In this document: one piece after another, positions 11,757 to 50,627 of the stretch | Layout of the letters: every line of letters begins with the position of its first letter | How positions within the stretch are numbered: position 1 is the first letter of the stretch | From: Thermoleophilia bacterium | Lineage (GTDB): Bacteria; Actinomycetota; Thermoleophilia; RBG-16-64-13 | DNA: 64,000 nt | NCBI GenBank assembly: GCA_040768135.1 | Contig: JAXGNF010000002.1 | Location: 18,435 to 82,434, forward strand | Direction: 5' to 3' | Made by a program: the position numbers and the translations under genes | The notes under the pieces: model-generated | Told to the model about the DNA's origin: nothing | Database searches by the model: none | The model's input: only the letters and a program-made list of their open reading frames with translations

Positions 11757-12716
11757 TTAGATAATCGCGTGGGCCAGCCCTCGCAGTCTCCCTAGGGTCA
11801 GCTCTCGGCTCTCCAAGAACGCCTCCAGACCGACCGACAGGGTCCGGGGAAGACGTGGGTCCAGAAAGGCCGCGGACCCCACCGCCACGACCGTCGCCCC
11901 ACAGGAGATGAAAGCGACCACGTCTTCCACGGTGGAAACCCCGCCCATGCCTATGATAGGGATGTCCACGCTCGCGAAAAGCTCGTACACTGCGCGTAGA
12001 GCAAGTGGTTTGATAGCGGGACCGGAAAGTCCCCCCATCACGTTGCCCAGATAAGGTCGTAGGGTCTCACGATCGATGACAAGACCCTTGTATGTGTTGA
12101 CCGCCGCCAAAACGTCTGCTCCGGCGGCGGCTGCGGCCCGACCGATCTCGGTGATATCGGTGACATTGGGAGTGAGCTTGGCAACGAGAAGCGCCGGCCA
12201 GGCCGACCGCACCGCCTCGACCACAGCGGCGGTTTCGCTCGCGTCGGCGCCAATCGACGCGCACCCTGAGTGGACATTCGGACAGGAGATATTGAGCTCA
12301 AGGCCCGCCCGAGTGCTCCAATCAGTCCGCGGAGCGTGCCCGTCCAAGGCTTCTCGTAGCGCCTCGGCTAGGAGGACGTATTCCTGCCGCGAGAACCCGC
12401 CCACACTGATGATGACCGGACAGGGGAGCGCCAGGAGTCGAGGAAGCTCCTGCTCGACGAAAGCCTGTATCCCCCGACCAGGTAATCCGATAGCGTTGAT
12501 CATGCCGCTCGCCGTCTCTAGGATCCGAGGGGCCGCGTTGCCGGTCCTAGCTTCCAGCGTCACGGTCTTCGGAACGTAGGCGGCCACCGGAGGATCGGAA
12601 AGTATGTCCGGCCCGAGGGCCGTAGCTACATCAAACAACTCCATAGTTCCCGAGGCGTTTATCAAGGGATGTTCTAGGCGCAGAGGGCCAAGTTGAACCG
12701 AGAGATCAGGCACCAA
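11757..12716 (-). CDS. pyrD: Dihydroorotate dehydrogenase 1B catalytic subunit (start at TTG 12716 or GTG 12713, overlapping the pyrK stop in a GTGCCTGA arrangement)
   Basis: The LEHPLINASG, GLPGRG and NISCPN motifs of class 1 DHODH. Confidence 0.85.
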   Translation of the reverse strand: MVPDLSVQLGPLRLEHPLINASGTMELFDVATALGPDILSDPPVAAYVPKTVTLEARTGNAAPRILETASGMINAIGLPGRGIQAFVEQELPRLLALPCPVIISVGGFSRQEYVLLAEALREALDGHAPRTDWSTRAGLELNISCPNVHSGCASIGADASETAAVVEAVRSAWPALLVAKLTPNVTDITEIGRAAAAAGADVLAAVNTYKGLVIDRETLRPYLGNVMGGLSGPAIKPLALRAVYELFASVDIPIIGMGGVSTVEDVVAFISCGATVVAVGSAAFLDPRLPRTLSVGLEAFLESRELTLGRLRGLAHAII

Positions 12717-13644
12717 AAACCTCCCTCCCCAAAAAAACGGGGCCGTCGTGGCACACGCGCGCGCTCGTTCCGTCGGCCAGTCCAATCAGGCAGCCGTGGC
12801 AGGATCCCACTCCACATGCCATCTTCCCTTCCAGGCTGAACCACGCACGAACACCCCCTACTGCAGAACAGACCCCCCAAACCGCCGCCAACATGGCATC
12901 GGGTCCGCACACCGCCAGCCGGTCCCCAGGCCGCAGATGACGGGCAAGAAGATCGGACGCCTTCACGGCCGGACCCCGCGACCCGTCTTCCACAGCCACC
13001 TCCAACCGGCAATGCACCCCTCCTCCCTCCATCCGAGCAGCGGCCTCTTTGACCGGAGCAGCGCAGCCGGCCTGCGCATCGTTGCGAAAACCAAGGAGTA
13101 CTAAGACCTCGGAGACAACCCCACCGGGACCTCGGAACCGGCCTACCTTCGACGCAGACGACAGGGTCCGATAGCGTTCCCGCATACGATCTAGCAGCAG
13201 GGGGAAAGGGGCCACGCCGGCCCCTCCGGCCACTAAGACGGCCCTCTCCGGGCTCATAACCAGGGCGTCAACGTCGAATCCTTTGCCAAGCGGACCCAAG
13301 ACCCAGAGGCGGTCACCACTCCGGAGCGCACAGAGTTCCCGGGTAGCGTCTCCTATCGGAGCGATGAAGAACGATATCTCCTCCCCTCTTTGTCCCGACA
13401 CTGAGATAGCACGGGCGAGAAAACTCTGAGAGTGCTCAGCCTGCAGCATCGCAAACCGACCCGGCGCGACCTCTGATATGCCGGGAATGACCACAGTCAA
13501 TCGGAACATAGTCCCCAAAGGCTCGTTGGCCTTCACTTCGGCAAGGACGCGCCGGGCCCCCGGTGGGTGACCGGCCGGACGACTCTCAGACCGGTGGTGA
13601 TGACCGCCACCGCAAGAAGCATCGATCGAGGGCCGATCGTTCAC
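12706..13644 (-). CDS. pyrK: Dihydroorotate dehydrogenase electron-transfer subunit PyrK (the true start is probably internal, near 13548)
   Basis: A ferredoxin-reductase-like fold followed by the C-terminal [2Fe-2S] cluster motif CGVGSCHGC. Confidence 0.8.
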
Positions 13645-16600
13645 TCCGCCGCTCCCAAGACGGCATCGGCAGCGCCGTCATCGCCCTGCAACAAGCGACC
13701 ATGTAGGTCTTGGAGGCAGGTCACCGTCACGGTGCGGTTCCGGCGGGCCGCGGCAATGGCCTGGACGGCCGCATGGGCGGCGGCCGCGCTGGTCATGGTC
13801 GGGACACCGCGTCTGAGGGCGGCTCTGCGGATCTCATAACCATCGGCCCGCGCCCCCCGGCCTCGGGGGATATTGATGACCAGATCGATCTCGCCCGCCT
13901 CGATGAGATCGACGATGGTGGCAAAGGGGTCGACATCCGTGGAGACCCGTTTATCCACCGCCGGTGACTCCTCGGCGGCACCCCAGGGACCGGACTCCTC
14001 AGTTCCTGAAGACGCGCCCTCAGCGTTGGACCCAGCCCTGGCGATCGCAGCAGCACGCAGGGCCACTCCTTCAGTGTGTTTGAGAACCGCCTCGGAACTG
14101 ATGCCGTTCAACGTGAGGGCCCGATGCGTACCCGCCGTGGCCAAGATACGAAAGCCCAAAGTACTGAGCACCAGGGCCATGAGGATGGCGGCATCCTTGT
14201 CGGCGTCGGCGATGGACATGAAGATCGCGCCCTCCTCAGGGAGCCGGTCGCCGGCGGCAAGTGAGGCTTTGGCGAAGGCGTCCGGAAAACTGGCGCCCAC
14301 GCCCATCACTTCGCCGGTGGATTTCATCTCCGGACCCAGAGTGGTATCCACTCCAGGGAATCGCGCAAAAGGCAGGACCGCCTCCTTCACGGCTACGTGC
14401 TGGAGGTCGCGCCGGCAGGGGATCCTGCCGGCGCGCAGAGATCCCTCCCAGCCCGGCAATCCCAGATCGCGCAGCTTCTGCCCGACAATGACCCGAGTGG
14501 CGATGCGGGCCAACGATACCCCGGTCGCCTTGCTGACAAAGGGTACTGTACGGCTGCTGCGTGGGTTGACCTCCAGGACGTAGATGCTCGCCCCGCCGTG
14601 GTCGCTCTGCTGTACCGCGTACTGCACATTCATGAGGCCTATCACACCGAGCTCCCGGGCCAACGCCGCCGTCTGGTCCTCGATGCGTCGCACCACTTCG
14701 TCGCCTATAGAGACGGGCGGGATCACACAAGCGGAGTCACCGGAGTGCACCCCGGCCTCCTCTACGTGCTGCATGACGGCGCCGATGTATACGTCCTCGC
14801 CGTCGCAGAGAGCGTCGACGTCTATCTCGGTAGCGTGCTCAAGAAAACGGTCGATGAGGACCGGGTGGCGGGGAGAGGCCTTCACGGCGGTGGTCAGGTA
14901 ATGCTGTAGACCCTCCTCGTCATAAACGATCTCCATGGCCCGTCCGCCCAGCACGTAAGAGGGGCGCACCAACACCGGGTAGCCGATGCGCTCAGCCACT
15001 GCCAACGCCTCATCCGCGTTCCGGACCGTGCCGTACGGAGGCGCCTTGAGGCCCAATCGTTCGAGCACGGCACCGAAGTGCTCCCGGTCTTCGGCCAGAT
15101 CGATCGCCTCCTGCGAGGTACCCAGGATGGGCACCCCGGCCGCGGCCAGCCGCTCAGCGATCTTGAGCGGGGTCTGGCCGCCAAACTGCACCACCACGCC
15201 TTTGGGGTTCTCGCTTTCGATGATGTTAAGCACATCCTCGAAAGTAAGCGGCTCGAAGTAGAGACGGTCGGACGTGTCGTAGTCGGTCGACACCGTTTCG
15301 GGGTTGCAGTTGACCATGATGGCCTCGTATCCAAGCTCACGCAACTCCTGGACCGCGTGTACGCAACAGTAGTCGAACTCGATACCCTGTCCGATGCGAT
15401 TGGGTCCACTCCCCAGGATGATCACCGACTCCCGGCCCGATCTAGATAGCGTTTTCTTCTCTTTTTCGTAAGTGGAGTAGAAGTAGGGCGTGTAGGCTTC
15501 GACCTGAGTCGCACAGGCGTCCACAGCCCGATAGACAGGAACGACCCCGTCGGCCTTTCGGCGCGTCCGGACCTCAGCCTCAGACGTGCCTAAGAACTTC
15601 GCGATGTATGGGTCGCTGAACCCCAGTCGCTTCGCGCGCCATAAGTCCTCTGTGGGCAGCGTGGAGAGACCCCCTCTTGGATAGAACGACCGGAGATGCT
15701 CCTCGGCTTCGACGATCTCCCACAGTTCTCTGAGGAACCATTTATCGATCAGAGTGACGGCGAAGATGGCTTCCAAAGTGACGTTCCGTCGATAGGCTTC
15801 GAGGATGAGATCGTAGCGTTCGGCCGAAGGGGTCGCGATCATCGCCACCAGCGCGCCGTTGTCGACCGGGAAGTCCGGCGCCACGTCGAGCTCGCGAGAA
15901 CGCATGGACTTCTGAAAGGCCTCCTTGAAGGTGCTCCCGAGGGCCATGTTCTCCCCCACGCTCTTCATGTGCGTGGTAAGACGGGCGTCGGCTAAGGGGA
16001 ACTTCTCGAACGCCCAGCGTGGGGTCTTCACTGCTACATGGTCTATGGTGAGCTCGGAACAACCCACAGCCGCCGATAGAGGGCTGCTTATGAGCTCGTC
16101 CAGAGTGTAGCCCACGGCCAGCTTGGCTGCGATCTTAGCGATGGGGAATCCGGTGGCTTTGGAGGCGAGGGCCGAAGAGCGACTGACACGCGGGTTCATC
16201 TCGATGACCACCAGTTCGTCAGTGTCAGGAGAGTACGCGAACTGGATATTGCAGCCCCCACTCTCCAATCCGATGGCCCGAACAATGGCAGGCGCAGCCT
16301 CACGCAGACGTCGGTATTGGGCGTCGGAAAGCGTCTGCTGAGGGGCGACGGTGATGGAATCCCCGGTGTGGACCCCCATGGGATCGATGTTCTCGATGGA
16401 ACAGACGATCACCACGTTGTCCTTTGAGTCCCGCATGACTTCTAGCTCGAACTCCTTCCAGCCGATGACGCTCTCTTCGAGCAGTACCTGGTGTGTCGGT
16501 GAAGCGTCGAGCCCGGCCTGGACCACATCCTCGAACTCTTGGTCGGTATTGGCCACACCTCCTCCATGGCCGCCCAAAGTGAAACTGGGCCGGATGATGA

Positions 16601-17135
16601 GCGGCAGCCGGAGCAGTCCGTCGGAGCCGCCGTTCTGGTGTTCCCCGGAGCTTCCGGCTAGAGCCGCCCGCGCCTCGGCCACACTGTTCACAACAGCGCT
16701 TTCCGGCACCCGCAGGCCGATAGAAGCAATGGCGGCTCGGAACTCATCACGGGCCTCAGCCCGGCGGATCGTGGCATAGTCGGCGCCGATGAGCTCGACT
16801 CCGTATTCATGAAGGGTACCGTCCTCCGTGAGCGCCACCGCCAGATTGAGAGCGGTCTGACCACCTAGGGTGGGAAGCAGAGCGTCGGGTCGCTCGTCGG
16901 CGATGACCCTGGCCACCACCTCGGGCACCAGGGGTTCGATGTAGGTGCGGTGGGAGAGCAACGGGTCGGTCATGATGGTGGCCGGGTTGGAATTCACCAG
17001 CACTACCTCGAAGCCCTCGTCCATCAGCACTTTGCAGGCCTGAGTACCTGAGTAGTCAAACTCACAAGCCTGACCGATGACGATGGGGCCCGAACCGAGC
17101 AGGAGGATCTTTTGGATGTCGGTACGCCGCGGCAT
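13641..17135 (-). CDS. carB: Carbamoyl-phosphate synthase large subunit
   Basis: 1164 aa; the N-terminus [23 protein letters not shown], duplicated ATP-grasp halves and a C-terminal MGS-like domain are all present. No carA is adjacent. Confidence 0.9.
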
Positions 17136-17137
17136 GA

Positions 17138-17296
17138 CTAGCGACCGGCCTTGTGGACGCCGTCATCGGTGCTTCCCTGCGGCCGGCGCGCCGAGACTAG
17201 CGGCGGTGGCTCAAAGCACAAGGGAACAAGAGGGGGCATGAATTGGATGATCCATAGACGGGGGCAGCCTGAAACGGCGGACGGGCGCGTGCTCAT
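17138..17296 (-). CDS. Candidate 52-codon upstream ORF ([52 protein letters not shown]) in the carB leader. Its TAG stop lies 2 nt before the carB ATG.
   Basis: An ATG at 17296 sits 9 nt downstream of an AGGAG that forms part of the PyrR motif; the stop is at 17138-17140; the ORF is absent from the track because it is under 60 aa. Confidence 0.3.
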
Positions 17297-17307
17297 GCCT
17301 GGCGTCT

Positions 17308-17337
17308 CCTTTCGGCCTCACAGGGCTCGATTAAAGG
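17308..17337 (-). promoter_or_regulatory. PyrR-binding RNA motif (mRNA sense CCUUUAAUCGAGCCCUGUGAGGCCGAAAGG) in the carB leader
   Basis: It matches the PyrR binding-loop consensus (UUUAA, then a UCCNGNGAGG-like loop, then GAAAGG) and is near-identical to the motifs upstream of pyrB and pyrC in this window. Confidence 0.6.
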
Positions 17338-17585
17338 TCGATCAATTGTACGTTATGAACGGCCCTCCTGGGAAGCGACGGGTGAAGAAGACCAAATCGG
17401 TCATCTATTTGTGGAGTCTTGGTCTTGGTTCACTCTCGTGACGGTCAGAACGCTTCTCACTGGGAACGACATGGATTCCATTGTCGGCAAACGGTCCGAT
17501 CGCGGCCTGGCCTCCGCACTCTCAGCCGGTCGCAGGGTCTATCCAACCCACCTCGATTCCCCCACGCCTCTCGCCTCGGCCACCA

Positions 17586-18296
17586 TCAGATAGCGACCGA
17601 ATAGACCCTGCCGGGCTCAAGGCGCGCTTCGACCAAGCCGGCGATGCGCTCAGCCACCGCAGCCGGAGAAGCCAGTCGACCCTCCCGGTGAAGACGGATA
17701 AAACGCTCCACCGTGGGGAAGTCCCCGACGTCTGCACTACGCACTGAATCCTGCATCGCCGTATCCATGACTCCCGGGCTGATGCTGATGGCGCGGATGG
17801 GATGAGGCCGCAACGCCTGCTCAAGCGCCACCGCCCTGATGTAGTTCTCCATGGCGGCCTTGCAGGCACAATAGAGAGACCAACCAGCCAATCCGGTCGT
17901 CGCCGCGCCACTAGAGATATTGACCAGCGTCTTCGGACAGGCATGGTCCTGAAAAGCCGCCACCACAGTCCGGGCGAAAAGAACGGCCGATGTCACACCA
18001 ACATGGATATGGGCCACGATGTCCAAAGGCGACGAACGTTCGACCGGTCCCACCGGACCGAGCATCGCGGCATTACTAACCGCCACCACTTCTGAGAGAC
18101 TTAGGTCGCCCAGTGGGACGATCGTCTTTTCGAAGACCTCGACCGCGCGCCCCGGGTCAGAGAGATCGACGTGGACACTGAAGGGGTGAGGAGCGGTCCG
18201 AGAGAACTCCACAACCTGTCGGCCTGCCCCCGCGTACATTTCACAGAGAGCCGCGCCTAACCCACGAGACCCGCCCGTGACAATGACCAACTTCAC
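17586..18296 (-). CDS. Classical short-chain dehydrogenase/reductase (SDR)
   Basis: 236 aa with the TGGSRGLG cofactor motif and a YxxxK catalytic region. Confidence 0.8.
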   Translation of the reverse strand: MKLVIVTGGSRGLGAALCEMYAGAGRQVVEFSRTAPHPFSVHVDLSDPGRAVEVFEKTIVPLGDLSLSEVVAVSNAAMLGPVGPVERSSPLDIVAHIHVGVTSAVLFARTVVAAFQDHACPKTLVNISSGAATTGLAGWSLYCACKAAMENYIRAVALEQALRPHPIRAISISPGVMDTAMQDSVRSADVGDFPTVERFIRLHREGRLASPAAVAERIAGLVEARLEPGRVYSVAI

Positions 18297-18323: not shown

Positions 18324-19244
18324 TCACGCAATTCGGCCCAACCGGTCCCCCACTTTGATGCCGGCCTCCGCCACAAATTCCGCTGCGCTCACCTTCGCGC
18401 TGCCGGCCGGTTGCACCCGCTTCACGAAGATGCTGCCCCCGGCGGCGGCGACCAAGAACCCTTCAGACGACACCTCCGTGATGGTGCCCGGTCTCTCCGG
18501 CCCACTGACCCCCCACTTCTCGCAATCGAAGATCTTGAGCTGCTGACTGCCCCAGATCGTGGCCGCCCCGGGGGACGGATTGCACCCGCGGATCACGTTG
18601 TAGACCACGCCGACCGGATACATCCAATCGATGTTCATAGCGTTACAGATGGGCTCGTACTCCCCTTGGCTGAGATCTTGGACGATCTTCGGGGCCCGGC
18701 CCTCTTCGACCAAGCGGACCGACTCCACGAGGGCCTCGACCCCCAGCGGGAACAACTTGCCGAAATACAGGCTCCCCAAAGTATCGCCGAACTCGATATC
18801 GACCTCCTTCTGCAGAAGAATCGGTCCCGTGTCTAGGCCTTCATCGGGCCAGAAGATGGAGAGCCCTGTCTTGGTCTCACCGTTAATAATCGCCCAGTTC
18901 ATGGCACTGGCTCCCCGGTGGCGGGGCAACAGTGAGGGGTGATACTGGATCGTCCCCAACCGCGGGTGGTTAAGGATAGAAAGCGGGACGATATCGGTAA
19001 CGAAGGCCATGACATTGAGATCGGCGTCGAAGGTCGCGTATTCCTCGAACACTTCGGGGTCCCTCATCCGAGCCGGTTGCCGCACAGGTATACCTTTTGC
19101 CTCAGCGGACTCGCGGAAGGGATTGCCCCTGCCGGGGGCCGCGTCCGGCGGTGCGTAGACCACCACTATCTCTTGCCCAGCGTCGAGAAGGGCTTCAAGG
19201 ACCTTTTCTCCGAAAGCCGCCTGGCCGATAAGCGCGATCTTCAT
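18324..19244 (-). CDS. Methionyl-tRNA formyltransferase-like paralog (formyltransferase N-domain plus an Fmt-type C-domain). It reads YHPSLLP where Fmt has NVHASLLP.
   Basis: 306 aa with strong similarity to the Fmt architecture, recalled from memory; def and the canonical fmt context are absent. Confidence 0.75.
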   Translation of the reverse strand: MKIALIGQAAFGEKVLEALLDAGQEIVVVYAPPDAAPGRGNPFRESAEAKGIPVRQPARMRDPEVFEEYATFDADLNVMAFVTDIVPLSILNHPRLGTIQYHPSLLPRHRGASAMNWAIINGETKTGLSIFWPDEGLDTGPILLQKEVDIEFGDTLGSLYFGKLFPLGVEALVESVRLVEEGRAPKIVQDLSQGEYEPICNAMNIDWMYPVGVVYNVIRGCNPSPGAATIWGSQQLKIFDCEKWGVSGPERPGTITEVSSEGFLVAAAGGSIFVKRVQPAGSAKVSAAEFVAEAGIKVGDRLGRIA

Positions 19245-42712: not shown

Positions 42713-44224
42713 TCAGGCCTCTCCTCGGGCGCGCTCGAAGCGGCGCGCCCCTTCCACGACGGTGAGTCTCACCCGCCCGGTGAGTGTCTCGCCCAGGAAG
42801 GCACAGTTACGACCTTTGCTGCGCAGACTCGCAGGAGTTACTTCCCAGGTCTCGCCCAGATCGACCACACAGAGGTCGGCCGAGGCCCCCACAGTCAGCC
42901 GCGGCTCAGCTAAGCCCAGGACGCGACACGGCCCTCCAGACAGAGCTTCCACCAGACGGCCGAGCGATAGCGCACCGGTCAGCACGAGGCCGGTGTAAAG
43001 AGCGGCGAAGGCGGTCTCCAGACCGGTAGTCCCGCAGAGGGCGTCTTCGATCGGCACCTCTTTCTCCTGCGGTGCATGGGGAGCGTGATCGGTACCGACA
43101 CAGTCTATGGTCCCGTCGGCAAGAGCAGCGACCAGAGCCTCCCGATCGGCGGCCGATCGGAGAGGGGGATTGACCTTGAGGTTCTGATCGAAGCTGGTCA
43201 GGCGATCGTCGCTCAACAGCAGGTGATGGGGCGTCACCTCTGCGGTAACGGGCAACCCTTCCTCTTTGGCGCAGCGCATCAGGCGCACGCTATCAGCCGC
43301 CGAGAGGTGTTGAAAATGAGCAACAGGGGTGAACCGGCGGGCGCCTGCAGCCGAGTCGTCTCTCAGACCGAGGCCGCCGACGGTTACCCCTGCCGGCCCG
43401 GGCAGAGCGGTAGCGCCTGTCATCACTTCACCCGTGGGCATACTATTTGGAAGTATTCGCGCCGCCGACAAGCGCCTTTCTTCAGCGTGGACGTAACGCA
43501 CCATCTCGAGGTCGCGGGCCAAGGGACCAGACTCCGAAACCGCGGGTATCCCCCGCAGTCCCAGACGAGCGCTCCATCTGCCCTCGTGCATGACCCCGTC
43601 TACCGAGAGCGTCCTGTTCTCGAGGTGAAGGAGCAGGGGTCTACCCATCCCCCGCGCGTATCGCAGGGCATGGAGCAGCAGATCGGCATCGAACACCGGT
43701 TGGCCGTCATCCGAGAACGCCACCACTCCCGCGTCGGCCAACTCCCACATCTCGGCCAGCTCCTCGCCTCTCAGGCCTTTGCTGACCGCGCCCACCTGGC
43801 CGATGCGGACATGCGCATCCACACCGGCCTGGTCAAGCACCCAAGCGGCCACGGGCCCACAATCGACCACTGGGTCGGTGTTGGCCATCGCCACAACCGC
43901 TACGTAACCTCCCGCGGCGGCGGCCAACGATCCCGAAAGAAGATCTTCTTTGTACTCATATCCCGGGGTACGAAGATGAACATGCGGGTCGACGAAACCG
44001 GGGAACACCCAGCAGCCGGCCAGATCGTCAAGTTTCTCCACCCCCGGTGGCCCGGCCACCCCTTCTCCGAGGGCCGCGATCGAACCGTCCTCGATCAAGA
44101 GATCGCCTTCGAGATCCACTCCATGCTGAGGATCGAAGAGATGTACGCCGGGGAGGAGAAAACGTTCGGGGAGCGCCCGCCTGCAGACTAGCTTGGGCGC
44201 GGAGGGACGAGGGCTCGTGTCCAT
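42713..44224 (-). CDS. pyrC: Dihydroorotase (cyclic amidohydrolase). The track start (GTG at 44245) lies inside the PyrR motif; the likely start is the ATG at 44224.
   Basis: The DPHVHLR metal-binding motif and an amidohydrolase fold; an insertion of about 100 aa makes it long at 503 aa. Confidence 0.85.
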   Translation of the reverse strand: MDTSPRPSAPKLVCRRALPERFLLPGVHLFDPQHGVDLEGDLLIEDGSIAALGEGVAGPPGVEKLDDLAGCWVFPGFVDPHVHLRTPGYEYKEDLLSGSLAAAAGGYVAVVAMANTDPVVDCGPVAAWVLDQAGVDAHVRIGQVGAVSKGLRGEELAEMWELADAGVVAFSDDGQPVFDADLLLHALRYARGMGRPLLLHLENRTLSVDGVMHEGRWSARLGLRGIPAVSESGPLARDLEMVRYVHAEERRLSAARILPNSMPTGEVMTGATALPGPAGVTVGGLGLRDDSAAGARRFTPVAHFQHLSAADSVRLMRCAKEEGLPVTAEVTPHHLLLSDDRLTSFDQNLKVNPPLRSAADREALVAALADGTIDCVGTDHAPHAPQEKEVPIEDALCGTTGLETAFAALYTGLVLTGALSLGRLVEALSGGPCRVLGLAEPRLTVGASADLCVVDLGETWEVTPASLRSKGRNCAFLGETLTGRVRLTVVEGARRFERARGEA

Positions 44225-44231
44225 CCGGGTT

Positions 44232-44261
44232 CCTTTCGGTCTCACGGGACTCGTTTAAAGG
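44232..44261 (-). promoter_or_regulatory. PyrR-binding RNA motif (CCUUUAAACGAGUCCCGUGAGACCGAAAGG) directly upstream of the pyrC ATG; its 3-prime strand contains the Shine-Dalgarno sequence
   Basis: Near-identical to the pyrB and carB copies; AAAGGAACCCGG AUG. Confidence 0.6.
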
Positions 44262-44349
44262 TCGTCTTATGGTAGCGCGGATGCATGAGAGGGTCCAGCG
44301 CTTCTGAGCACAACACCTGTGAGACTAGAAACGCCACGGAACTCTCCAC

Positions 44350-45117
44350 TTAGACCGTCGACCTCCCTTGAGCGGAAGGCTCGTAGTCGAGCCAGGTCGG
44401 CAGAGACGAAGAAGCCGCGCGGAGCCTAGCCCTATGATCGCGCCACCCCGGATCACACGCCTCCAGTAGTGCCCAGAAGCGCGGTGAGTGGTTCATCTCG
44501 CGCGTGTGGCAGAGCTCGTGGAGCAGCACATGGTCGACCACCTCAGGCGACAGAAAGAGCAGGCGCGCGTTCAGGGATATTGTCTTTCGGCGAGAACAAC
44601 TGGCCCAGCGCGTCCGTTGCTGCCGGACGGCCACCGATCCATAGTCAAAGCCGTGCCGACGCGCGAGCAAATCCAGACGAGGCCCAAGAGCCATCCGCGC
44701 CTTCCGGCTTAGCCAGCGACACAGTGCGTCTTTGCCTGCCGACGGGTCTTCGATCCCGCCGCTCACCACTAGGAGTCCTCGGGGGCGCTCACGCGCTGCT
44801 GCGCGGCAAGCCCGGCATCCAGAGCCGGCGGGCGCCGGGACGGCCGGCACATACTCGACATCCCACTCCTCGTCAATGGCGGCCAGAAGGATCTTTTCTG
44901 GGAGCCTAGGTGGCTCAATCTGCAACCGTCTGCGCCGATCTTCCATACGGGAGGCCGTCCGGGCGATCCAGGCCCGTCTACTCTCGAGCACTTCGGGAAG
45001 CCTGCGGTGATCGAAGTCCTGGGGGACCACGACTTCCAGCCCTCGCTCCACCGTCATGACGAGGCGCACGCGCCGGGCGCGTGCGCTCACCCGCACCGAG
45101 TACTCCCGGTCAACCAA
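44350..45117 (-). CDS. YgjP-like / M48-related metal-dependent hydrolase (DUF45)
   Basis: 255 aa with the C-terminal HELCHTREMNHSPRFW HExxH-type motif. Confidence 0.7.
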   Translation of the reverse strand: MVDREYSVRVSARARRVRLVMTVERGLEVVVPQDFDHRRLPEVLESRRAWIARTASRMEDRRRRLQIEPPRLPEKILLAAIDEEWDVEYVPAVPAPAGSGCRACRAAARERPRGLLVVSGGIEDPSAGKDALCRWLSRKARMALGPRLDLLARRHGFDYGSVAVRQQRTRWASCSRRKTISLNARLLFLSPEVVDHVLLHELCHTREMNHSPRFWALLEACDPGWRDHRARLRAASSSLPTWLDYEPSAQGRSTV

Positions 45118-45187
45118 GTGACATGGCCTTCAATACACGACCCGCCTTCTGACGGCCGCAATATCCTGCAGCCTTCCCCTCCCCGGA

Positions 45188-48100
45188 CTAGTGCTCCTCG
45201 GTCTCATCAAAGTCCCGCCCCGCCGGCAGGTTCGGACCGCTGCTCTCCACGGTGACTCCGCGGGCTCCGGTCGCAGCCAGGACCTCCTCGTCCACCACTC
45301 CGGGCTCGAACGGACAAGCCTCGCTGTAAACCATCTCCGCCTGCTGTTTAAGGATCTGCCACCGGGTACACACATGCTTCTGCGCTTTGTCCCACAGCAG
45401 CTCAGCTGCCTCGGGGTAGGCCTTCTTAAGCATGTTGTACCGGTTCTCCTTGGGAACGAATTCCTCCACCGGCAGCGACATCTCTTTGGAGTCGATCTGC
45501 AGAGGGTTCTTGCCCTGCGCCGCCAGGCGCGGGTCGAACCGATAGCAGATCCAAGAGCCGGACTGCACCGCCATCTTCTGATGCTCATAGCCCCGGCTCA
45601 TGTCAAAGCCCATACTGATGCAGTGGCTGTAGGCGATGATCAGACTGGGGCCGTCGTAGGACTCGGCCTCCACAAAGGCGCGCACCGTCTGGGAGTCGCT
45701 GTATCCCATGGCCACTTGAGCCACGTAGACGTTGCCGTAGGTCATGGCGATAGACCCCAGGTCTTTCTTACCGGTTGTCTTCCCTCCGGCGGCGAACAGA
45801 GCCACCGATCCCATCGGTGTGGCCTTAGACATCTGGCCGCCCGTATTCGAGTACATCTGCGTATTCAGCACCAGCAAGTTGATGTTGCGCTGGGAGGCGA
45901 GAACGTGGTCCAGTCCTCCGTAACCGATGTCAAAAGCCCATCCATCGCCGCCGACGCCCCAGACGCTCTTCTTGACCAGGTAGTCGGCGACGGCCAGGAG
46001 CCGGCCGTACCGGGGGTCGTCTCCATTGCCCGCTAGAGCCGTTTCGATCTTCACTTTCAGTTCGGCCACCCGAGCCCGTTGCGCCGCGATCTCAGCCTCG
46101 TCCTCCTGCTTGGACGCCAGAAGAGCCTCCGCCAGATCAGCGCCGATGACCTCGCGCAACTCTGCGACCAGTTCGCGGGCGAACTCGGAGTGCTTGTCCA
46201 CGGTCAGCCGCAGACCGAAGCTGAACTCAGCGGCGTCCTCGAACAACGAGTTGTTCCAAGCGGGGCCGCGGCCGTCCCTGTTCCTGGAGTAGGGCGTGGT
46301 GGGTAGATTGCCCCCGTAAATGCTTGAACACCCGGTGGCATTGCCGATGAGCAATCGATCGCCCACCAACTGGGTGAGAAGCTTGAGATAAGGTGTCTCT
46401 CCACACCCGGCACATGCTCCCGGATATTCGAACAGGGGCCGCAACAACTGGCTACCTTTGACCGTGTTGACCCGCACTTCGGTGCGGTCGGGGTCATGCA
46501 GGCGGAGGAAGAAGAGGTAGTTCTGCCGTTCCTGTTCGCGCAGCGGCGGCTGGAAGGCCATGTTGATAGCATGCCGTTCCGGATCGGCTTTGTCTCTACC
46601 CGGGCAGATCTGTACGCAGGCTCCGCAACCGGTGCAATCCTCCACCGCCACCTGCACGGTCCACTTCTTACCGGCGTATTCCTTCCCTTTAGCGTCTACC
46701 GATTTGAAAGTGGGTGGAGCCCCCTCCAAAGCCTCCGGGTCGTACAGCTTCGTACGGATACAGGCGTGCGGACAGTGCAGCGAACACTTGCCACACTGGA
46801 TACACAACTCCGGTTCCCACACCGGTACCTCCAAAGCGATGTTGCGCTTCTCCCAGCGGGTAGTGGCGACCGGCCAGACCCCGTCGTCGGGGATCTTGCT
46901 CACCGGCAGGCTGTCGCCCTCGCCGGCCATGATGCGGGCGGTGACCTCCTGCACGAACTCAGGCGCTTCTGCAGGCACCAGCTTGGGCTTGCGCCGCGTA
47001 CTCGTCACCGCCGCCGGCACCTCGATACGGTGCAAATTGGCGATGGCTTGGTCGACGGCGTTGTAGTTCATCTGCACGACCTTCTCGCCTCGTTTGCCGT
47101 AGGTCGTTTCGATGGCCTTCTTGATAGCCGTGACCGCCTGTTCGGGCGGGATGATGTTAGACAGGTAGAAGAAGCAGGTCTGCATGATGGTGTTGATACG
47201 CCCCCCCATACCGGTCTCTTTGGCGACTTGGTAGGCGTTGATGGCGTAGACCTTCAGCCCGAGCTTGATTATCCAGTCCTGAGTCTCATACGGGAGTCTG
47301 TCCCAGACCTCTTCGGCGGGAAAAGGAGCGTTGAGCAGGAAGATGCCTCCCGGGACGGCCGCAGCCAGAGTCCTGTATCTCTCCACAAAAGCCCATACGT
47401 GGCAGGCGATGAAGTCGGCTCTATTCAGTAAGTAGGCCGAACGGATAGGTTGAGGGCCGAAGCGTAAATGGCTGACGGTGAGCACCCCGGCTTTCTTGGA
47501 GTCGTACACGAAATAGCCTTGGACATAATTCTCAGTGTCTTCTCCGATGATCTTGATCGAGTTCTTGTTGGCACCCACCGTGCCGTCACTACCAAGACCG
47601 TAGAAAAGGGCCCGGTACACGTTCTCGGGTTCGGTGCTGAAGGTCGGGTCGTACTCCAGGCTGGTGTAGGTGACGTCGTCATCGATGCCCAACGTGAAGT
47701 GGTTCTTGGGTTGCGGCTTGTTGAGCTCGTCGAATACGGCCTTGACCATGGCCGGAGTGAACTCCTTGCTCGAAAGGCCGTAGCGGCCCCCGATGACCTT
47801 CGCATCGAGACCCACCTCAGCCACCGCATTGACCACGTCGAGGTATAGAGGTTCACCGGCGGCTCCCGGCTCCTTGGTCCGGTCGAGAACCCCGATCAGC
47901 TTCGTCGTTTTGGGGAGGGCAGCCGCAAAATGCGCGACGCTGAAGGGTCGGTACAGTCTCACCTTCAGCACTCCCACCTTCTCGCCCCTCGCGGTCAGAT
48001 AGTCCACAGTCTCGTGAACGGTCTCCGCTCCCGAACCCATGAGCACAAGCACGCGTTCGGCTTCCGGGGAGCCCACATAGTCGAACAGGTGATAACTACG

Positions 48101-48862
48101 GCCCGTGAGTTCAGCGAAGGCGTCCATATACTCTTGGACGATCCCTGGGGTCGCGAGATAGTACTTGTTGACGCTCTCCCTCCCCTGGAAGTACACATCG
48201 GGGTTCTGGCTCGTGCCGCGGATGGTGGGGCGGTCGGGACTCATGGCCCGTTCACGTACAACCTGCACGAGGTTCTCGTCGACCATCGCTCGAAGCACAT
48301 CGTCTCCCAGGAGTTCGAACTTCTGCACCTCATGAGAAGTACGGAACCCGTCACAGAAATGAATGAAGGGCACCCGGGACTTCAGCGTCGCTGCGGTTCC
48401 GATGAGGGCCAGGTCGTGGGCTTCTTGCACCGAATTCGAAGCCAGAAGGGCGAACCCGGTCTGCCTCACAGCCATGACATCCTGGTGGTCGCCGAAGATG
48501 CTGAGCGCCTGAGCGGCAATCGACCGAGCCGTCACATGCCAGCAGGTGGGAGTCAACTCACCCGCGATCTTGTACATCGTGGGGATCATAAGGAGGAGAC
48601 CCTGACTGGCTGTGAAAGTGGTGCTGAGCGAACCCGCCTGCAGAGCTCCATGGACGGCCGCAGCCGCCCCGCCTTCCGATTGCATTTCGACCACCACGGG
48701 AACCGTACCCCAGAGGTTCTTCTGGCCGGCTGCGCTCCAAGCGTCTGCATGTTCGGCGATGGGACTTGAGGGGGTAATCGGGTAGATGGCGATTACTTCG
48801 TTCAGCCTATACGCAACGTGGGCGATGGCTTCGGTGCCATCCATCACTGCCATGTTCTTCAC
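45188..48862 (-). CDS. nifJ: Pyruvate:ferredoxin (flavodoxin) oxidoreductase, single-polypeptide PFOR
   Basis: 1224 aa; the N-terminus MDGTEAIAHVAYRLNEVIAIYPITPSS, two 4Fe-4S ferredoxin motifs (CIQCGKCSLHCP and CTGCGACVQICP) and a TPP domain. Confidence 0.9.
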   Translation of the reverse strand: MKNMAVMDGTEAIAHVAYRLNEVIAIYPITPSSPIAEHADAWSAAGQKNLWGTVPVVVEMQSEGGAAAAVHGALQAGSLSTTFTASQGLLLMIPTMYKIAGELTPTCWHVTARSIAAQALSIFGDHQDVMAVRQTGFALLASNSVQEAHDLALIGTAATLKSRVPFIHFCDGFRTSHEVQKFELLGDDVLRAMVDENLVQVVRERAMSPDRPTIRGTSQNPDVYFQGRESVNKYYLATPGIVQEYMDAFAELTGRSYHLFDYVGSPEAERVLVLMGSGAETVHETVDYLTARGEKVGVLKVRLYRPFSVAHFAAALPKTTKLIGVLDRTKEPGAAGEPLYLDVVNAVAEVGLDAKVIGGRYGLSSKEFTPAMVKAVFDELNKPQPKNHFTLGIDDDVTYTSLEYDPTFSTEPENVYRALFYGLGSDGTVGANKNSIKIIGEDTENYVQGYFVYDSKKAGVLTVSHLRFGPQPIRSAYLLNRADFIACHVWAFVERYRTLAAAVPGGIFLLNAPFPAEEVWDRLPYETQDWIIKLGLKVYAINAYQVAKETGMGGRINTIMQTCFFYLSNIIPPEQAVTAIKKAIETTYGKRGEKVVQMNYNAVDQAIANLHRIEVPAAVTSTRRKPKLVPAEAPEFVQEVTARIMAGEGDSLPVSKIPDDGVWPVATTRWEKRNIALEVPVWEPELCIQCGKCSLHCPHACIRTKLYDPEALEGAPPTFKSVDAKGKEYAGKKWTVQVAVEDCTGCGACVQICPGRDKADPERHAINMAFQPPLREQERQNYLFFLRLHDPDRTEVRVNTVKGSQLLRPLFEYPGACAGCGETPYLKLLTQLVGDRLLIGNATGCSSIYGGNLPTTPYSRNRDGRGPAWNNSLFEDAAEFSFGLRLTVDKHSEFARELVAELREVIGADLAEALLASKQEDEAEIAAQRARVAELKVKIETALAGNGDDPRYGRLLAVADYLVKKSVWGVGGDGWAFDIGYGGLDHVLASQRNINLLVLNTQMYSNTGGQMSKATPMGSVALFAAGGKTTGKKDLGSIAMTYGNVYVAQVAMGYSDSQTVRAFVEAESYDGPSLIIAYSHCISMGFDMSRGYEHQKMAVQSGSWICYRFDPRLAAQGKNPLQIDSKEMSLPVEEFVPKENRYNMLKKAYPEAAELLWDKAQKHVCTRWQILKQQAEMVYSEACPFEPGVVDEEVLAATGARGVTVESSGPNLPAGRDFDETEEH

Positions 48863-48963
48863 TATGGTGATCCTCTCCGTGGAACGCCCCCATCAGGGCT
48901 TGGTCTGCGCGGCGGGGTCTGTGTTTTACGTGACTTACTGTGGTCTTTGGGGTCCATGGATCC

Positions 48964-49884
48964 TCACGCGGCGGACTCCTCGCTGAGGCTCCCGGCCAGG
49001 CACCGGTACAAAATGGCCATTCTCACGGCCAGTCCCGATTCTACTTGATGAAGAATCAGGGAACGTTCGTCGTCGGCCAAGTCGGCCGATATCTCCACTC
49101 CCCGGTTGATCGGGCCCGGGTGCATCACCCTTTGTCCCGGCTTGACCCGGTAGGGCGACAGGCCCCAGATCCGGCTGTACTCGCGCAGGGAGGGCACGGG
49201 CGGCACTTTTCCTTTCGCCCGCTCCAATTGCATGCGCAGGAGATAGATGGTGTCCACCTCCGCAAGCGCCTCAAGATCATGGTAGACGGGCACCTCCCAA
49301 TACTCGATACCGGGGGGCATAAGAGTAGGGGGACCCACCAGTCGCACATCGATGCCCATCTTGCGAAAGCCAAAAAGGTCGGAGCGGGCCACTCGGCTGC
49401 GCAGGATATCTCCGACAATGGCCACCTTGAGCCCCGTCAACTCGCCATAAACCCGCCGCAGACTGTAGAGATCGAGCAGACATTGGGTGGGATGTTCGCC
49501 CGTCCCATCCCCCGCATTCACCACCGAGGCATTGGTGTATCGAGTGGCCATCCGTGAGGCCCCAACCCGGGGATGACGCATCACGATGATATCGGGCCGG
49601 TAGCTCTCCAGGGTCAGGATGGTGTCCTTGAGGCTTTCTCCTTTGGACACACTCGACGACGATTCTTTGATGTTGATTACATCGGCCGACAGGCGCTTGC
49701 CTGCCAGTTCAAAAGACGCCTGCGTCCTCGTCGAAGGCTCCATGAAAACATTGACGACGGTACGCCCCCTGAGGGTGGGGACTTTCTTGATAGAGCGCGA
49801 AGCAACCTCTAGGAAGCCGTCACTGAGCTGAAAGAGATCATCAATATCGGATGCGGTGAGATCGTCGATCGAGATGAGATGCAT
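48964..49884 (-). CDS. pyrB: Aspartate carbamoyltransferase catalytic subunit
   Basis: The STRTQASFE and HPxQ motifs; 306 aa. Confidence 0.9.
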   Translation of the reverse strand: MHLISIDDLTASDIDDLFQLSDGFLEVASRSIKKVPTLRGRTVVNVFMEPSTRTQASFELAGKRLSADVINIKESSSSVSKGESLKDTILTLESYRPDIIVMRHPRVGASRMATRYTNASVVNAGDGTGEHPTQCLLDLYSLRRVYGELTGLKVAIVGDILRSRVARSDLFGFRKMGIDVRLVGPPTLMPPGIEYWEVPVYHDLEALAEVDTIYLLRMQLERAKGKVPPVPSLREYSRIWGLSPYRVKPGQRVMHPGPINRGVEISADLADDERSLILHQVESGLAVRMAILYRCLAGSLSEESAA

Positions 49885-49892
49885 ACCATTAC

Positions 49893-49923
49893 CCTTTCGG
49901 TCTCACGGGACACGTTTAAAAGG
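49893..49923 (-). promoter_or_regulatory. PyrR-binding RNA motif (CCUUUUAAACGUGUCCCGUGAGACCGAAAGG) ending 8 nt before the pyrB ATG
   Basis: GAAAGGGUAAUGGU AUG; the motif sits between pyrR and pyrB, as in PyrR-attenuated or translationally repressed operons. Confidence 0.6.
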
Positions 49924-50018
49924 TCTGCGTTCTTCTTTGGAATTGTACCGCGCCCCGCCCGTCGTCTCCAACATCTGCCGACGAGACCGATACTTCAAGG
50001 ACAGACAGCCGTTGTCTA

Positions 50019-50627
50019 CTACTCTCGAATCATGACCTCGTCGACCCCGTCGGCTCCGATCAGATGCACGACCACCTTCTCACTGCGGCTGGTGGGAACG
50101 TTCTTGCCCACGAAGTCGGGTCTGATAGGCAGATCGCGATGGCCACGGTCGATAAGTACGGCCAGGCGTACGGCCAACGGACGCCCATAGTCGAACAAAG
50201 CGTCGATAGCCGCTCGGATGGTCCGCCCTGTATAAAGGACATCGTCCACCAGCACTATCGTCTTTCCGGTGACATCGAAAGGCAGGTTGGTGGAGTGGAC
50301 TTTGGGCTGCAACATATCCCTGCCTAGACGGATGTCGATATCGTCACGGTAGAAGGTGATGTCAATCGCACCCGTGGGCGGAGTCACCCCATAAAACCGG
50401 GCGAACAGCCCGGCCAGGCGCTCGGCCAGCTCCACCCCTCCTTCTTGGATGCCCACCAACACAAGATTATCCAGATCAGGAGCCTGCTCGGCGATCTCGT
50501 GGGTCATCCTGGCCAGCGTCCGACTGATCTGCCCCTCGTCCAGGAGCACCTTTGCCTTCCCACCGAGGCTGTCACCGGCCTCCGCCACCGTATTCACCCA
50601 CCTTTCGCCATTATCGCTCTTGGACAA
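50019..50627 (-). CDS. pyrR: Pyrimidine operon regulator / uracil phosphoribosyltransferase PyrR
   Basis: PRTase motif VLVDDVLYTGRTIRAA and the PyrR N-terminal region. Confidence 0.9.
   Translation of the reverse strand: MSKSDNGERWVNTVAEAGDSLGGKAKVLLDEGQISRTLARMTHEIAEQAPDLDNLVLVGIQEGGVELAERLAGLFARFYGVTPPTGAIDITFYRDDIDIRLGRDMLQPKVHSTNLPFDVTGKTIVLVDDVLYTGRTIRAAIDALFDYGRPLAVRLAVLIDRGHRDLPIRPDFVGKNVPTSRSEKVVVHLIGADGVDEVMIRE

Follow-up and report, generated by a model that had tools for sequence, protein, structure and literature searches.

A PyrR-type hairpin and a conserved upstream reading frame before carB in a Thermoleophilia bacterium: a candidate translational relay

In an uncultured Thermoleophilia bacterium, the pyrimidine gene carB is preceded by a leader that combines a hairpin of the PyrR-binding type with a 52-codon upstream open reading frame (uORF) ending two nucleotides (nt) before the carB start codon. 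The locus lies within positions 18,435 to 82,434 of contig JAXGNF010000002.1 (assembly GCA_040768135.1). This stretch of 64,000 nt, which was analysed as a whole, is called the window, and all coordinates refer to it. Comparison with related leaders suggests that the uORF is maintained for the position of its stop codon, and the arrangement probably allows translational repression by PyrR to be passed on to carB.

The carB leader and its hairpin

The genes and features of the carB locus, all on the minus strand, are as follows.

11757..12713, minus strand: pyrD, dihydroorotate dehydrogenase (NCBIfam NF005574, 299 bits against a cut-off of 269)
12706..13644, minus strand: pyrK-like gene, electron-transfer subunit of dihydroorotate dehydrogenase (Pfam PF10418; NCBIfam scores under the cut-offs)
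13641..17135, minus strand: carB, large subunit of carbamoyl-phosphate synthase, long form of 1164 amino acids (NCBIfam NF003671, 1511 bits; Pfam CPSase_L domains)
17136..17137, minus strand: UC, the gap between the uORF stop codon and the carB ATG, a putative termination-reinitiation junction (from the sequence)
17138..17296, minus strand: uORF of 52 codons, ATG to TAG (from the list of open reading frames)
17306..17312, minus strand: AAAGGAG, Shine-Dalgarno sequence of the uORF (read from the sequence), five of its seven bases belonging to the 3' arm of the hairpin
17308..17337, minus strand: PyrR-binding-loop hairpin CCUUUAAUCGAGCCCUGUGAGGCCGAAAGG (Rfam RF00515, 17 bits, model positions 5-36)
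17345..17374, minus strand: sigma-70-type promoter, TTCCCA-18 nt-TACAAT (promoter scan, one site against 0.1 expected in shuffles)
17586..18296, minus strand: short-chain dehydrogenase/reductase (SDR) gene, the nearest gene upstream of carB

A preliminary description of this DNA had reported that carB lacks an adjacent carA and that the SDR gene lies 450 nt upstream. This layout is confirmed by the 450-nt intergenic gap, and a tblastn search with two CarA proteins found no carA anywhere in the 64-kb window (best E 0.15). The same description had read an AGGAG placed 9 nt before an ATG at 17296, a 52-codon frame, a TAG at 17138-17140 and a UC spacer, all of which hold. The hairpin is followed by AG, 9 nt and the ATG at 17296, and the frame closes with TAG at 17140..17138. 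Where carB had been credited with a weak Shine-Dalgarno sequence, it proves to have none of its own, as the 20 nt upstream of the gene contain no GGAG, GAGG or AGGA, and AAGG at -17 is the only purine-rich match. For naked leader RNA, the pairing probability predicted around the carB start is 0.71 in the window and 0.46-0.86 across the leaders compared below.

The hairpin was originally proposed to be the third PyrR site of this DNA, the others standing before pyrC and pyrB.

44232..44261, minus strand: PyrR hairpin, 7 nt upstream of the ATG of pyrC (RF00515, 19.2 bits)
49893..49922, minus strand: PyrR hairpin, 8 nt upstream of the ATG of pyrB (RF00515, 21.4 bits)
50019..50627, minus strand: pyrR, regulator and uracil phosphoribosyltransferase (NCBIfam equivalog NF003549, 232 bits against a cut-off of 138; Pfam PRTase domain)

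This assignment is now backed by the pyrR gene, by covariation in the hairpin and by the distribution of the hairpin over pyr genes. At the Rfam gathering thresholds no family matches in the window; in permissive local searches, RF00515 (PyrR) is the sole plausible family at each of the three copies. The gathering score of this family is 54 bits, and the low score of the carB site can be attributed to the model, which describes the whole 115-nt Bacillus attenuator while the carB site aligns with the binding loop only. No matches to the motif were found in shuffled windows. The carB hairpin alone has a folding energy of -8.7 kcal/mol.

An alignment of 28 distinct hairpin sites shows a standard pair in each of its 280 pair cells. 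Two pairs have undergone compensatory changes, with C-G, G-C, U-A and U-G found at one stem position and an outer U-A replaced by G-C in a divergent lineage; most of these sites were retrieved by a pattern that fixes 25 of 30 positions, so few positions could vary. Scanning metagenome contigs with the degenerate pattern CCTTTAATCGNGNCCNGNGAGNCCGRAAGG returned 64 loci. The first open reading frame (ORF) after the hairpin is mostly carB, the remainder comprising pyrB (8), pyrC (3), carA (2), a leader of pyrR (3) and three unidentified frames. In relatives, the hairpin thus precedes pyrB, pyrC, carA, pyrR and carB, and the genome studied here encodes PyrR. The hairpin is therefore best regarded as the putative PyrR operator of this lineage, acting in the mycobacterial style, and the pyrR product is presumed to bind all three copies.

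The geometry of the three sites is alike. At pyrB and pyrC, the 3' arm of the hairpin is followed 7-8 nt later by the ATG, as it is at the uORF, the distance from hairpin end to start codon being 11 nt for the uORF, 8 nt for pyrB and 7 nt for pyrC. As in the mycobacterial type of control, the binding loop overlaps the Shine-Dalgarno sequence of the first translated ORF, which at carB is the uORF.

Between the -10 element and the hairpin lie 7 nt in the window and 7-8 nt in relatives, which carry a matching TTC(C/T)CA ... TA(C/G)(A/G/C)AT arrangement upstream of the hairpin. Owing to this spacing, the hairpin probably stands at or near the 5' end of the mRNA. The conserved promoter therefore puts the 5' leader at about 200 nt, of which the uORF takes 159 nt, and not at 450 nt; the earlier characterization of the leader as unusually long was overstated.

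Conservation of the uORF among related leaders

The closest relatives of this CarB, at 72-82% identity, belong to uncultured Thermoleophilia. When metagenome contigs were scanned with CarB itself, only generic CarB proteins of 50-56% identity were among the matches listed. Loci from relatives and metagenomes, after deduplication, provide 42 unique carB leaders with the hairpin, and these fall into two types. In the direct type (25 of 42), the hairpin lies 7-15 nt from the carB start. In the uORF type (17 of 42), carB lies 87-218 nt downstream of the hairpin. The latter group consists of the window and 16 related leaders, and an additional locus, L160, represents an 18th case. In a tree of the first 230 CarB residues, the two leader types are interleaved. 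A tree of full-length CarB groups six crown members of the uORF type and eight crown members of the direct type separately, with bootstrap values of 30-34%.

In each of the 17 long leaders, the first start codon, located 8-12 nt past the hairpin, opens an ORF that ends 0-3 nt before carB. Sixteen of these ORFs begin with ATG and one with GTG, and they close with UAG (14) or UGA (three). Thirteen leaders leave a gap of 2 nt between this stop and the start of carB, two leave 3 nt and two leave 0 nt. The lengths found are 24, 25, 28, 29, 34, 40, 44, 49, 51, 52 and 68 codons. L160, whose CarB is 71% identical, has a variant hairpin (CCGUU...AACGG) and a uORF of 22 codons that runs into carB as UAGAUG, with a gap of 0. 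With this locus, the stop codon abuts the start of carB at a gap of 0-3 nt in 18 of 18 cases. Three other loci were treated separately. L117, in which the uORF frame is broken, was excluded as an assembly error, its carB being frameshifted several times within 300 nt. The contigs of L116 and L125 end early and agree with the rule as far as they reach.

A frame open only by chance in GC-rich DNA had been named at the outset as an outcome that would undo the proposal, with a look at relatives as the check. If this were the case, the hairpin would act in some other way, for instance on mRNA stability or through long-range structure. Several ORFs of 50-96 codons do overlap the region on both strands, and when the window leader alone is shuffled, an ORF that extends from the uORF ATG to 0-3 nt before carB turns up with a probability of only 0.0075 (0.75% of shuffles). 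The relatives speak otherwise, since position, frame and stop-start abutment are kept in all 17 leaders and in L160, which makes 18 of 18 long leaders of good quality, a leader counting as long when carB stands more than 20 nt beyond the hairpin. Stop depletion is specific to one frame: over about 630 codons per frame, the 17 leaders have no interior stop in line with the uORF, and the two remaining frames contain 25 and 9. The probability that a shuffled leader yields an ORF ending 0-3 nt before carB ranges from 0.006 to 0.028 per leader, and the naive joint probability for the 17 is about 10^-33, although this product is no true P value because the leaders share descent. The loci are not near-identical copies either, with CarB identities of 71-82% and peptides that cannot be aligned. 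A conserved or unusually stable leader structure was not found in these leaders (folding z of about 0 to +2). The comparative data effectively refute chance as the source of the frame, and its probability appears negligible.

The spacing of the start codons provides a further regularity. In the class with a 2-nt gap, eight distances between the uORF ATG and the carB ATG occur (77, 80, 89, 125, 137, 158, 161 and 209 nt), all of them 2 mod 3; every surviving insertion or deletion kept the frame. The contrast between frames of one and the same sequence, together with the series of lengths, is hard to explain without selection for translation up to the carB start.

The start of carB itself offers little to an initiating ribosome in most of these leaders. 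Among the 15 with a gap of 2 or 3 nt, none has GGAG, GAGG or AGGA placed to serve carB, and 12 of the 15 have no match within 20 nt. The gap-0 leaders L119, L137 and L160 contain GGAGG or GAGGG at about -15 to -9. Two additional candidate features of the junction were considered and rejected. A long-range pairing of the two start regions through GGCAUG/CAUGCC complementarity is not conserved. The other was a programmed -1 frameshift that would join the uORF to CarB, for which the leaders share no slippery site. The carB frame is -1 relative to the uORF in the gap-2 class, but where the gap is 0 or 3 nt carB lies in frame behind the stop; conservation of the CarB N-terminus, MPRR.DI, begins at the ATG of carB itself, which counts against a fusion.

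In contrast to its end points, the peptide encoded by the uORF is not conserved, nor does purifying selection act on it. A homologue search retrieved only the identical peptide from several assemblies of the same species, and no Pfam or NCBIfam family matched it. Across leaders, the peptides share a loose N-terminal pattern (M-S/T-x-R/C-P/A-H-A-...) and are not alignable past about 10 residues. They consist largely of R, P, S and L and contain hardly any D, E, K or N. Within the four uORFs of 24 codons, variable columns number 5, 8 and 8 by codon position, and nonsynonymous to synonymous changes in the 24-codon group stand at 40:20, against 224:277 in the adjacent carB. Because homologues are lacking, the peptides do not align and most changes are nonsynonymous, it is very unlikely that the product acts as a functional protein or a sensor peptide. 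The uORF is probably translated only as a conveyor of ribosomes.

A peptide that senses a second signal for carB would nevertheless be sensible on metabolic grounds, as carbamoyl phosphate feeds both arginine and pyrimidine synthesis. Such a peptide could be an arginine attenuator, like that of the fungal CPA1/arg-2 genes, or a TnaC-like arrest peptide. The fungal uORF encodes a conserved arginine attenuator peptide (AAP) that stalls the ribosome, and the gene it controls specifies the small subunit of carbamoyl-phosphate synthetase. The resemblance consists of a short uORF before a carbamoyl-phosphate synthetase gene, controlling the main ORF. Several of the uORFs described here are also 24-25 codons long, their N-terminal part is weakly conserved and half of them end in Arg. 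However, the conserved peptide that characterizes arrest and sensor leaders (TnaC, SpeFL, fungal AAP) is missing, as shown by lengths of 22-68 codons, the failure to align past some 10 residues, the predominance of nonsynonymous changes and the want of any family or homologue. An enrichment of arginine codons was rejected as well, arginine making up 14.4% of uORF residues against about 12.8% expected from base composition by our own calculation. Unlike in the fungal system, the signal at carB would be read by PyrR at the ribosome-binding site that serves the uORF. A sensor or arrest peptide is accordingly given very little credence.

Several minor features of the leaders deserve mention. The last sense codon of the uORF is often CGC, within a semi-conserved GGUCGC-UAG-CC-AUG junction. 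The 27 long ORFs of the window end in TGA (14), TAG (10) and TAA (3), to be compared with UAG in 14 of the 17 uORFs. The preference for UAG and the junction motif may be inherited or may matter for reinitiation. In two direct-type leaders (L090 and L148), the sequence GAAAGG-ATGAGTGGCTGACGC-ATG forms an ORF of three codons (M-S-G-stop) at the end of the hairpin, 3 nt before carB, and the same ATG shares the reading frame of carB in L107 and L146. The three-codon ORF may be what is left of a deleted uORF or may have arisen by chance.

The hairpin also precedes short ORFs upstream of pyrR in other metagenomic lineages. An ORF of 20 codons ends about 40 nt before pyrR in L132, one of 22 codons ends about 10 nt before it in L145, and in L150 the frame stays open into pyrR. 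In all three, pyrR has a strong Shine-Dalgarno sequence of its own. PyrR-gated leader ORFs may reach beyond carB.

A putative relay from PyrR to carB

The observations that bear on a mechanism are the covarying hairpin with its regulon-like spread, the pyrR gene, the fixed end points of the uORF, the missing Shine-Dalgarno sequence of carB and the lack of a terminator. They are best read as translational repression by PyrR that is relayed to carB through termination-reinitiation coupling, a reading considered likely. PyrR binding, translation of the uORF and dependence of carB on the uORF are the steps that we infer from sequence. Transcription would start about 7 nt after TACAAT, and the mRNA would open with the PyrR hairpin, whose 3' arm supplies most of the uORF Shine-Dalgarno sequence AAAGGAG. 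When pyrimidines are plentiful, PyrR carrying UMP or UTP would lock the hairpin, so that the 30S subunit is barred from the Shine-Dalgarno sequence and the uORF stays untranslated. As carB has no Shine-Dalgarno sequence, starts 2 nt past the uORF stop and is predicted to be mostly paired in this region, it would depend for most of its initiation on ribosomes fresh from termination at the uORF stop. A block of the uORF would then silence carB. When pyrimidines are scarce, PyrR would be off the RNA, and ribosomes would translate the uORF, stop at UAG and restart on carB. The peptide itself would be functionless, with only translation to the exact end point being of consequence. Beyond carB, the GTG start of pyrK overlaps the carB stop as GTGA (13641-13644). 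Coupling derived from the uORF could spread through carB into pyrK by way of this overlap, and pyrK would probably be lowered along with carB.

The preliminary interpretation, a PyrR-gated leader ORF coupled to carB, is thus supported by the comparison, though several points weigh against it. Actinobacteria initiate many genes without a Shine-Dalgarno sequence, and some initiation of carB independent of the uORF is therefore possible. All three hairpins fall short of the RF00515 gathering score (17, 19.2 and 21.4 bits against 54). The 18 leaders have a common ancestry and do not represent 18 independent events. The relatives with the hairpin directly on carB indicate that the uORF is dispensable for PyrR control, and it could be a tolerated historical accident instead of an adaptation. 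Finally, the 5' end of the uORF is weakly conserved, and the separation of leader types in the CarB tree is weak (bootstrap 30-34%).

Control at the level of transcription was also considered. A terminator scan found no intrinsic terminator in window positions 17000-17700, and 15 of the 17 long leaders contain no T-run. Rho-dependent attenuation is another matter, either as an addition to the translational relay or as its main point: the C-rich uORF region would load Rho when PyrR stops its translation, terminating transcription of carB-pyrK-pyrD prematurely. On this view, the uORF would be there to shield or expose the loading site. Termination by Rho gated by a uORF is an established class, for instance at tnaC and speFL (PMC12360218). 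C exceeds G in all 17 leaders, with a mean skew of +0.16 compared with -0.05 +/- 0.11 in 160-nt windows of coding strand, and only about 2% of such coding-strand windows reach a skew of +0.17 in this DNA. The leaders are also slightly less structured than their shuffles (mean z +0.6; 13 of 17 positive). However, C/G skew is a loose predictor that may reflect avoidance of Shine-Dalgarno-like G-runs or of structure. In addition, a leader as short as 66-75 nt has about the minimum length that Rho loading requires, and direct-type relatives would gain the same polarity from an untranslated carB. The signal is weak and not specific, and a contribution of Rho is possible but doubtful.

PyrR has two established modes of action: in Bacillus it attenuates transcription, and in mycobacteria it represses translation directly. 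A third was proposed for Thermus. In Mycobacterium smegmatis, where translational repression was reportedly described by Fields and Switzer in 2007, the occluded ribosome-binding site is that of the first real gene of a single pyr operon. The carB locus resembles this system in belonging to an actinobacterium and in lacking terminator and antiterminator, and pyrB and pyrC of the window look like direct examples of it. The differences are that the occluded site at carB belongs to a uORF of non-conserved sequence, so that the effect must be relayed to carB, and that the pyr genes are distributed over at least three units, each under its own control. With the pyr attenuators of Bacillus subtilis (RF00515), the hairpin shares the CC.G.GAGG apical loop and flanking stems, but scores only 17-21 bits against the gathering score of 54, and the mutually exclusive antiterminator and terminator elements of a Bacillus-type attenuator are absent.

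For Thermus ZO5, Van de Casteele and colleagues are said to have proposed in 1997 that a PyrR site controls a leader peptide whose translating ribosome prevents a terminator from forming, with pyrR located downstream. The likeness lies in a PyrR site joined to a translated leader ORF, with PyrR deciding on leader translation. The proposed Thermus arrangement is one of attenuation, in which the leader ORF lies over an intrinsic terminator. No such arrangement is present at carB, where neither a terminator nor a U-tract is found and the uORF stop abuts the gene, pointing instead to translational coupling.

The nearest parallels to such a relay involve a different regulator. CsrA represses iraD by way of a small ORF in front of the gene (Park et al., 2017; PMC5574718) and controls evgL-evgA by coupling through a leader ORF (PMC11210196). 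In both cases, the Shine-Dalgarno sequence of the leader ORF is occluded and repression is passed on wholly by translational coupling, as proven experimentally (PMC5574718; PMC11210196). Like the carB leader, these systems have a leader ORF whose stop overlaps or abuts the main start and a main gene whose initiation region is weak or sequestered. At carB, the stop abuts the start and the main ORF is without an accessible Shine-Dalgarno sequence as in the iraD type, accessibility being a prediction. The regulator, organism and pathway differ, as does the junction, where stop overlaps start in the CsrA systems while a 2-nt gap is commonest before carB. The CsrA cases are proven by experiment, whereas the carB relay is deduced from comparative sequence. 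More generally, leader ORFs are enriched near actinobacterial genes, which has been read as a sign of reinitiation (PMC4833913).

A full-text search of the accessible literature for PyrR together with uORFs returned nothing relevant. The original statement that such a relay has not been described for the PyrR regulon is correct only in part, as coupling from regulator through uORF to gene is known for CsrA and a PyrR-controlled leader peptide was reportedly proposed for Thermus. The locus would add a relay mode to the repertoire of PyrR, in which the regulator controls a disposable uORF and the signal reaches a gene without a Shine-Dalgarno sequence by termination and reinitiation. Natural variation, with relatives that have or lack the uORF and lengths of 22-68 codons sharing a common end, makes this a clean case in which the position of the stop, and not the peptide, would be selected. 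For genome annotation, such ORFs give reason neither to be discarded nor to be treated as protein genes. The leader also suggests a compact synthetic design, consisting of a protein-gated hairpin followed by any ORF and a UAGNNAUG junction. In practical terms, the case is of modest consequence, as these bacteria are uncultured and CsrA has already made the general principle known.

Origin of the leader and the remaining pyrimidine genes

The related locus L161, whose CarB is 63% identical, retains the order pyrC-carA-carB-pyrK-pyrD. Adjacency of carA and carB is therefore ancestral and was lost in the clade of the window. In L161:2440-2510, the carA/carB junction is tandemly duplicated (...TCGTAATGCCGCGCCGC...AATTCGTAATGCCGCGCCGC...). 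The duplication creates a 12-codon ORF, MPRRSQSTGRNS, copied from the carB start and joined by TAATG overlaps to the carA stop and the carB ATG. L161 shows how coupling mini-ORFs can arise before carB.

Two direct sources of the uORF were examined and rejected. An origin as a duplicate of the carB 5' end is undetectable, as leaders align with the first 240 nt of their own carB no better than shuffles do in 16 of 16 testable cases. An origin as a carA remnant finds no sequence support either, since the tblastn comparison of two CarA proteins with the window, including the leader, is not significant and the peptide resembles neither terminus of CarA by eye. The alternative first put forward, that the leader is what remained after carA was lost, thus fails as a description of the present sequence, although it stays plausible as an origin, given that the outgroup L161 keeps carA directly upstream of carB.

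In its stronger form, this idea makes the uORF a functionless fossil, derived from carA or from the duplication of a gene junction, with carB initiated independently and without a Shine-Dalgarno sequence. The canonical gene order of L161, the mini-ORF produced by its junction duplication and the failure to find carA in the window are all consistent with it. However, a fossil would be expected to gather stops and frame-breaking insertions or deletions, yet the uORF frame has none of the interior stops seen in the other two frames, and every length variant holds its stop at the carB start. The leaders have no detectable similarity to the carB 5' end, the peptides are unlike the CarA termini of L101, L139 and L161 as judged by eye, and L101 carries carA elsewhere with a hairpin of its own. 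A functionless fossil is improbable.

Plausibly, carB evolved in coupling with carA, and after carA moved away a short ORF on the PyrR-controlled ribosome-binding site kept delivering ribosomes to it. A more elaborate proposal would treat the uORF as a selected coupling adaptor derived from the ancestral carA-carB junction, in which the PyrR block acts through lost reinitiation combined with Rho termination on the C-rich leader, switching off carB-pyrK-pyrD as a unit. This version is speculative and, taken as a whole, rather unlikely. If true, it would constitute a fourth mechanistic class of PyrR regulation and provide a natural example of a coupling-dependent gene that kept a 'ghost' upstream ORF after its partner gene had left.

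The long form of CarB, with 1164 amino acids compared with about 1070, may have a history of its own. L159:1-6088 contains two tandem genes for the large subunit of carbamoyl-phosphate synthase, the first encoding 1071 and the second 1195 amino acids, with a variant of the PyrR hairpin between them. This suggests that the long form is a separate PyrR-controlled paralogue. The genome of the window may carry a second carB, and carA, elsewhere.

Three separate pyrimidine units of this Thermoleophilia genome would be under PyrR control, among them the carB-pyrK-pyrD cluster. Within this cluster, pyrD has a probable GTG start at 12713 that overlaps the end of pyrK and is preceded by a strong Shine-Dalgarno sequence, GGGGAGGGAGG. 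The genes of the other two units were identified by TIGR00857 (pyrC, 350 bits against a cut-off of 279; ATG at 44224) and NF002032 (pyrB, 352 bits; ATG at 49884), and each has its own TACAAT-like -10 element, hairpin and start codon. The pyrR gene lies directly upstream of pyrB. Across positions 42713-50627, the pyr genes are scattered, and a gene for a pyruvate:ferredoxin oxidoreductase of 1224 amino acids and one for a YgjP-like metallopeptidase lie between pyrR-pyrB and pyrC. On the far side of the carB promoter, about 200 nt (17381-17585) extend from the SDR stop to the promoter without an assigned feature. They hold an imperfect inverted repeat, AAGACCAA...TTGGTCTT, which was not flagged by the terminator scan and might terminate the SDR transcript.

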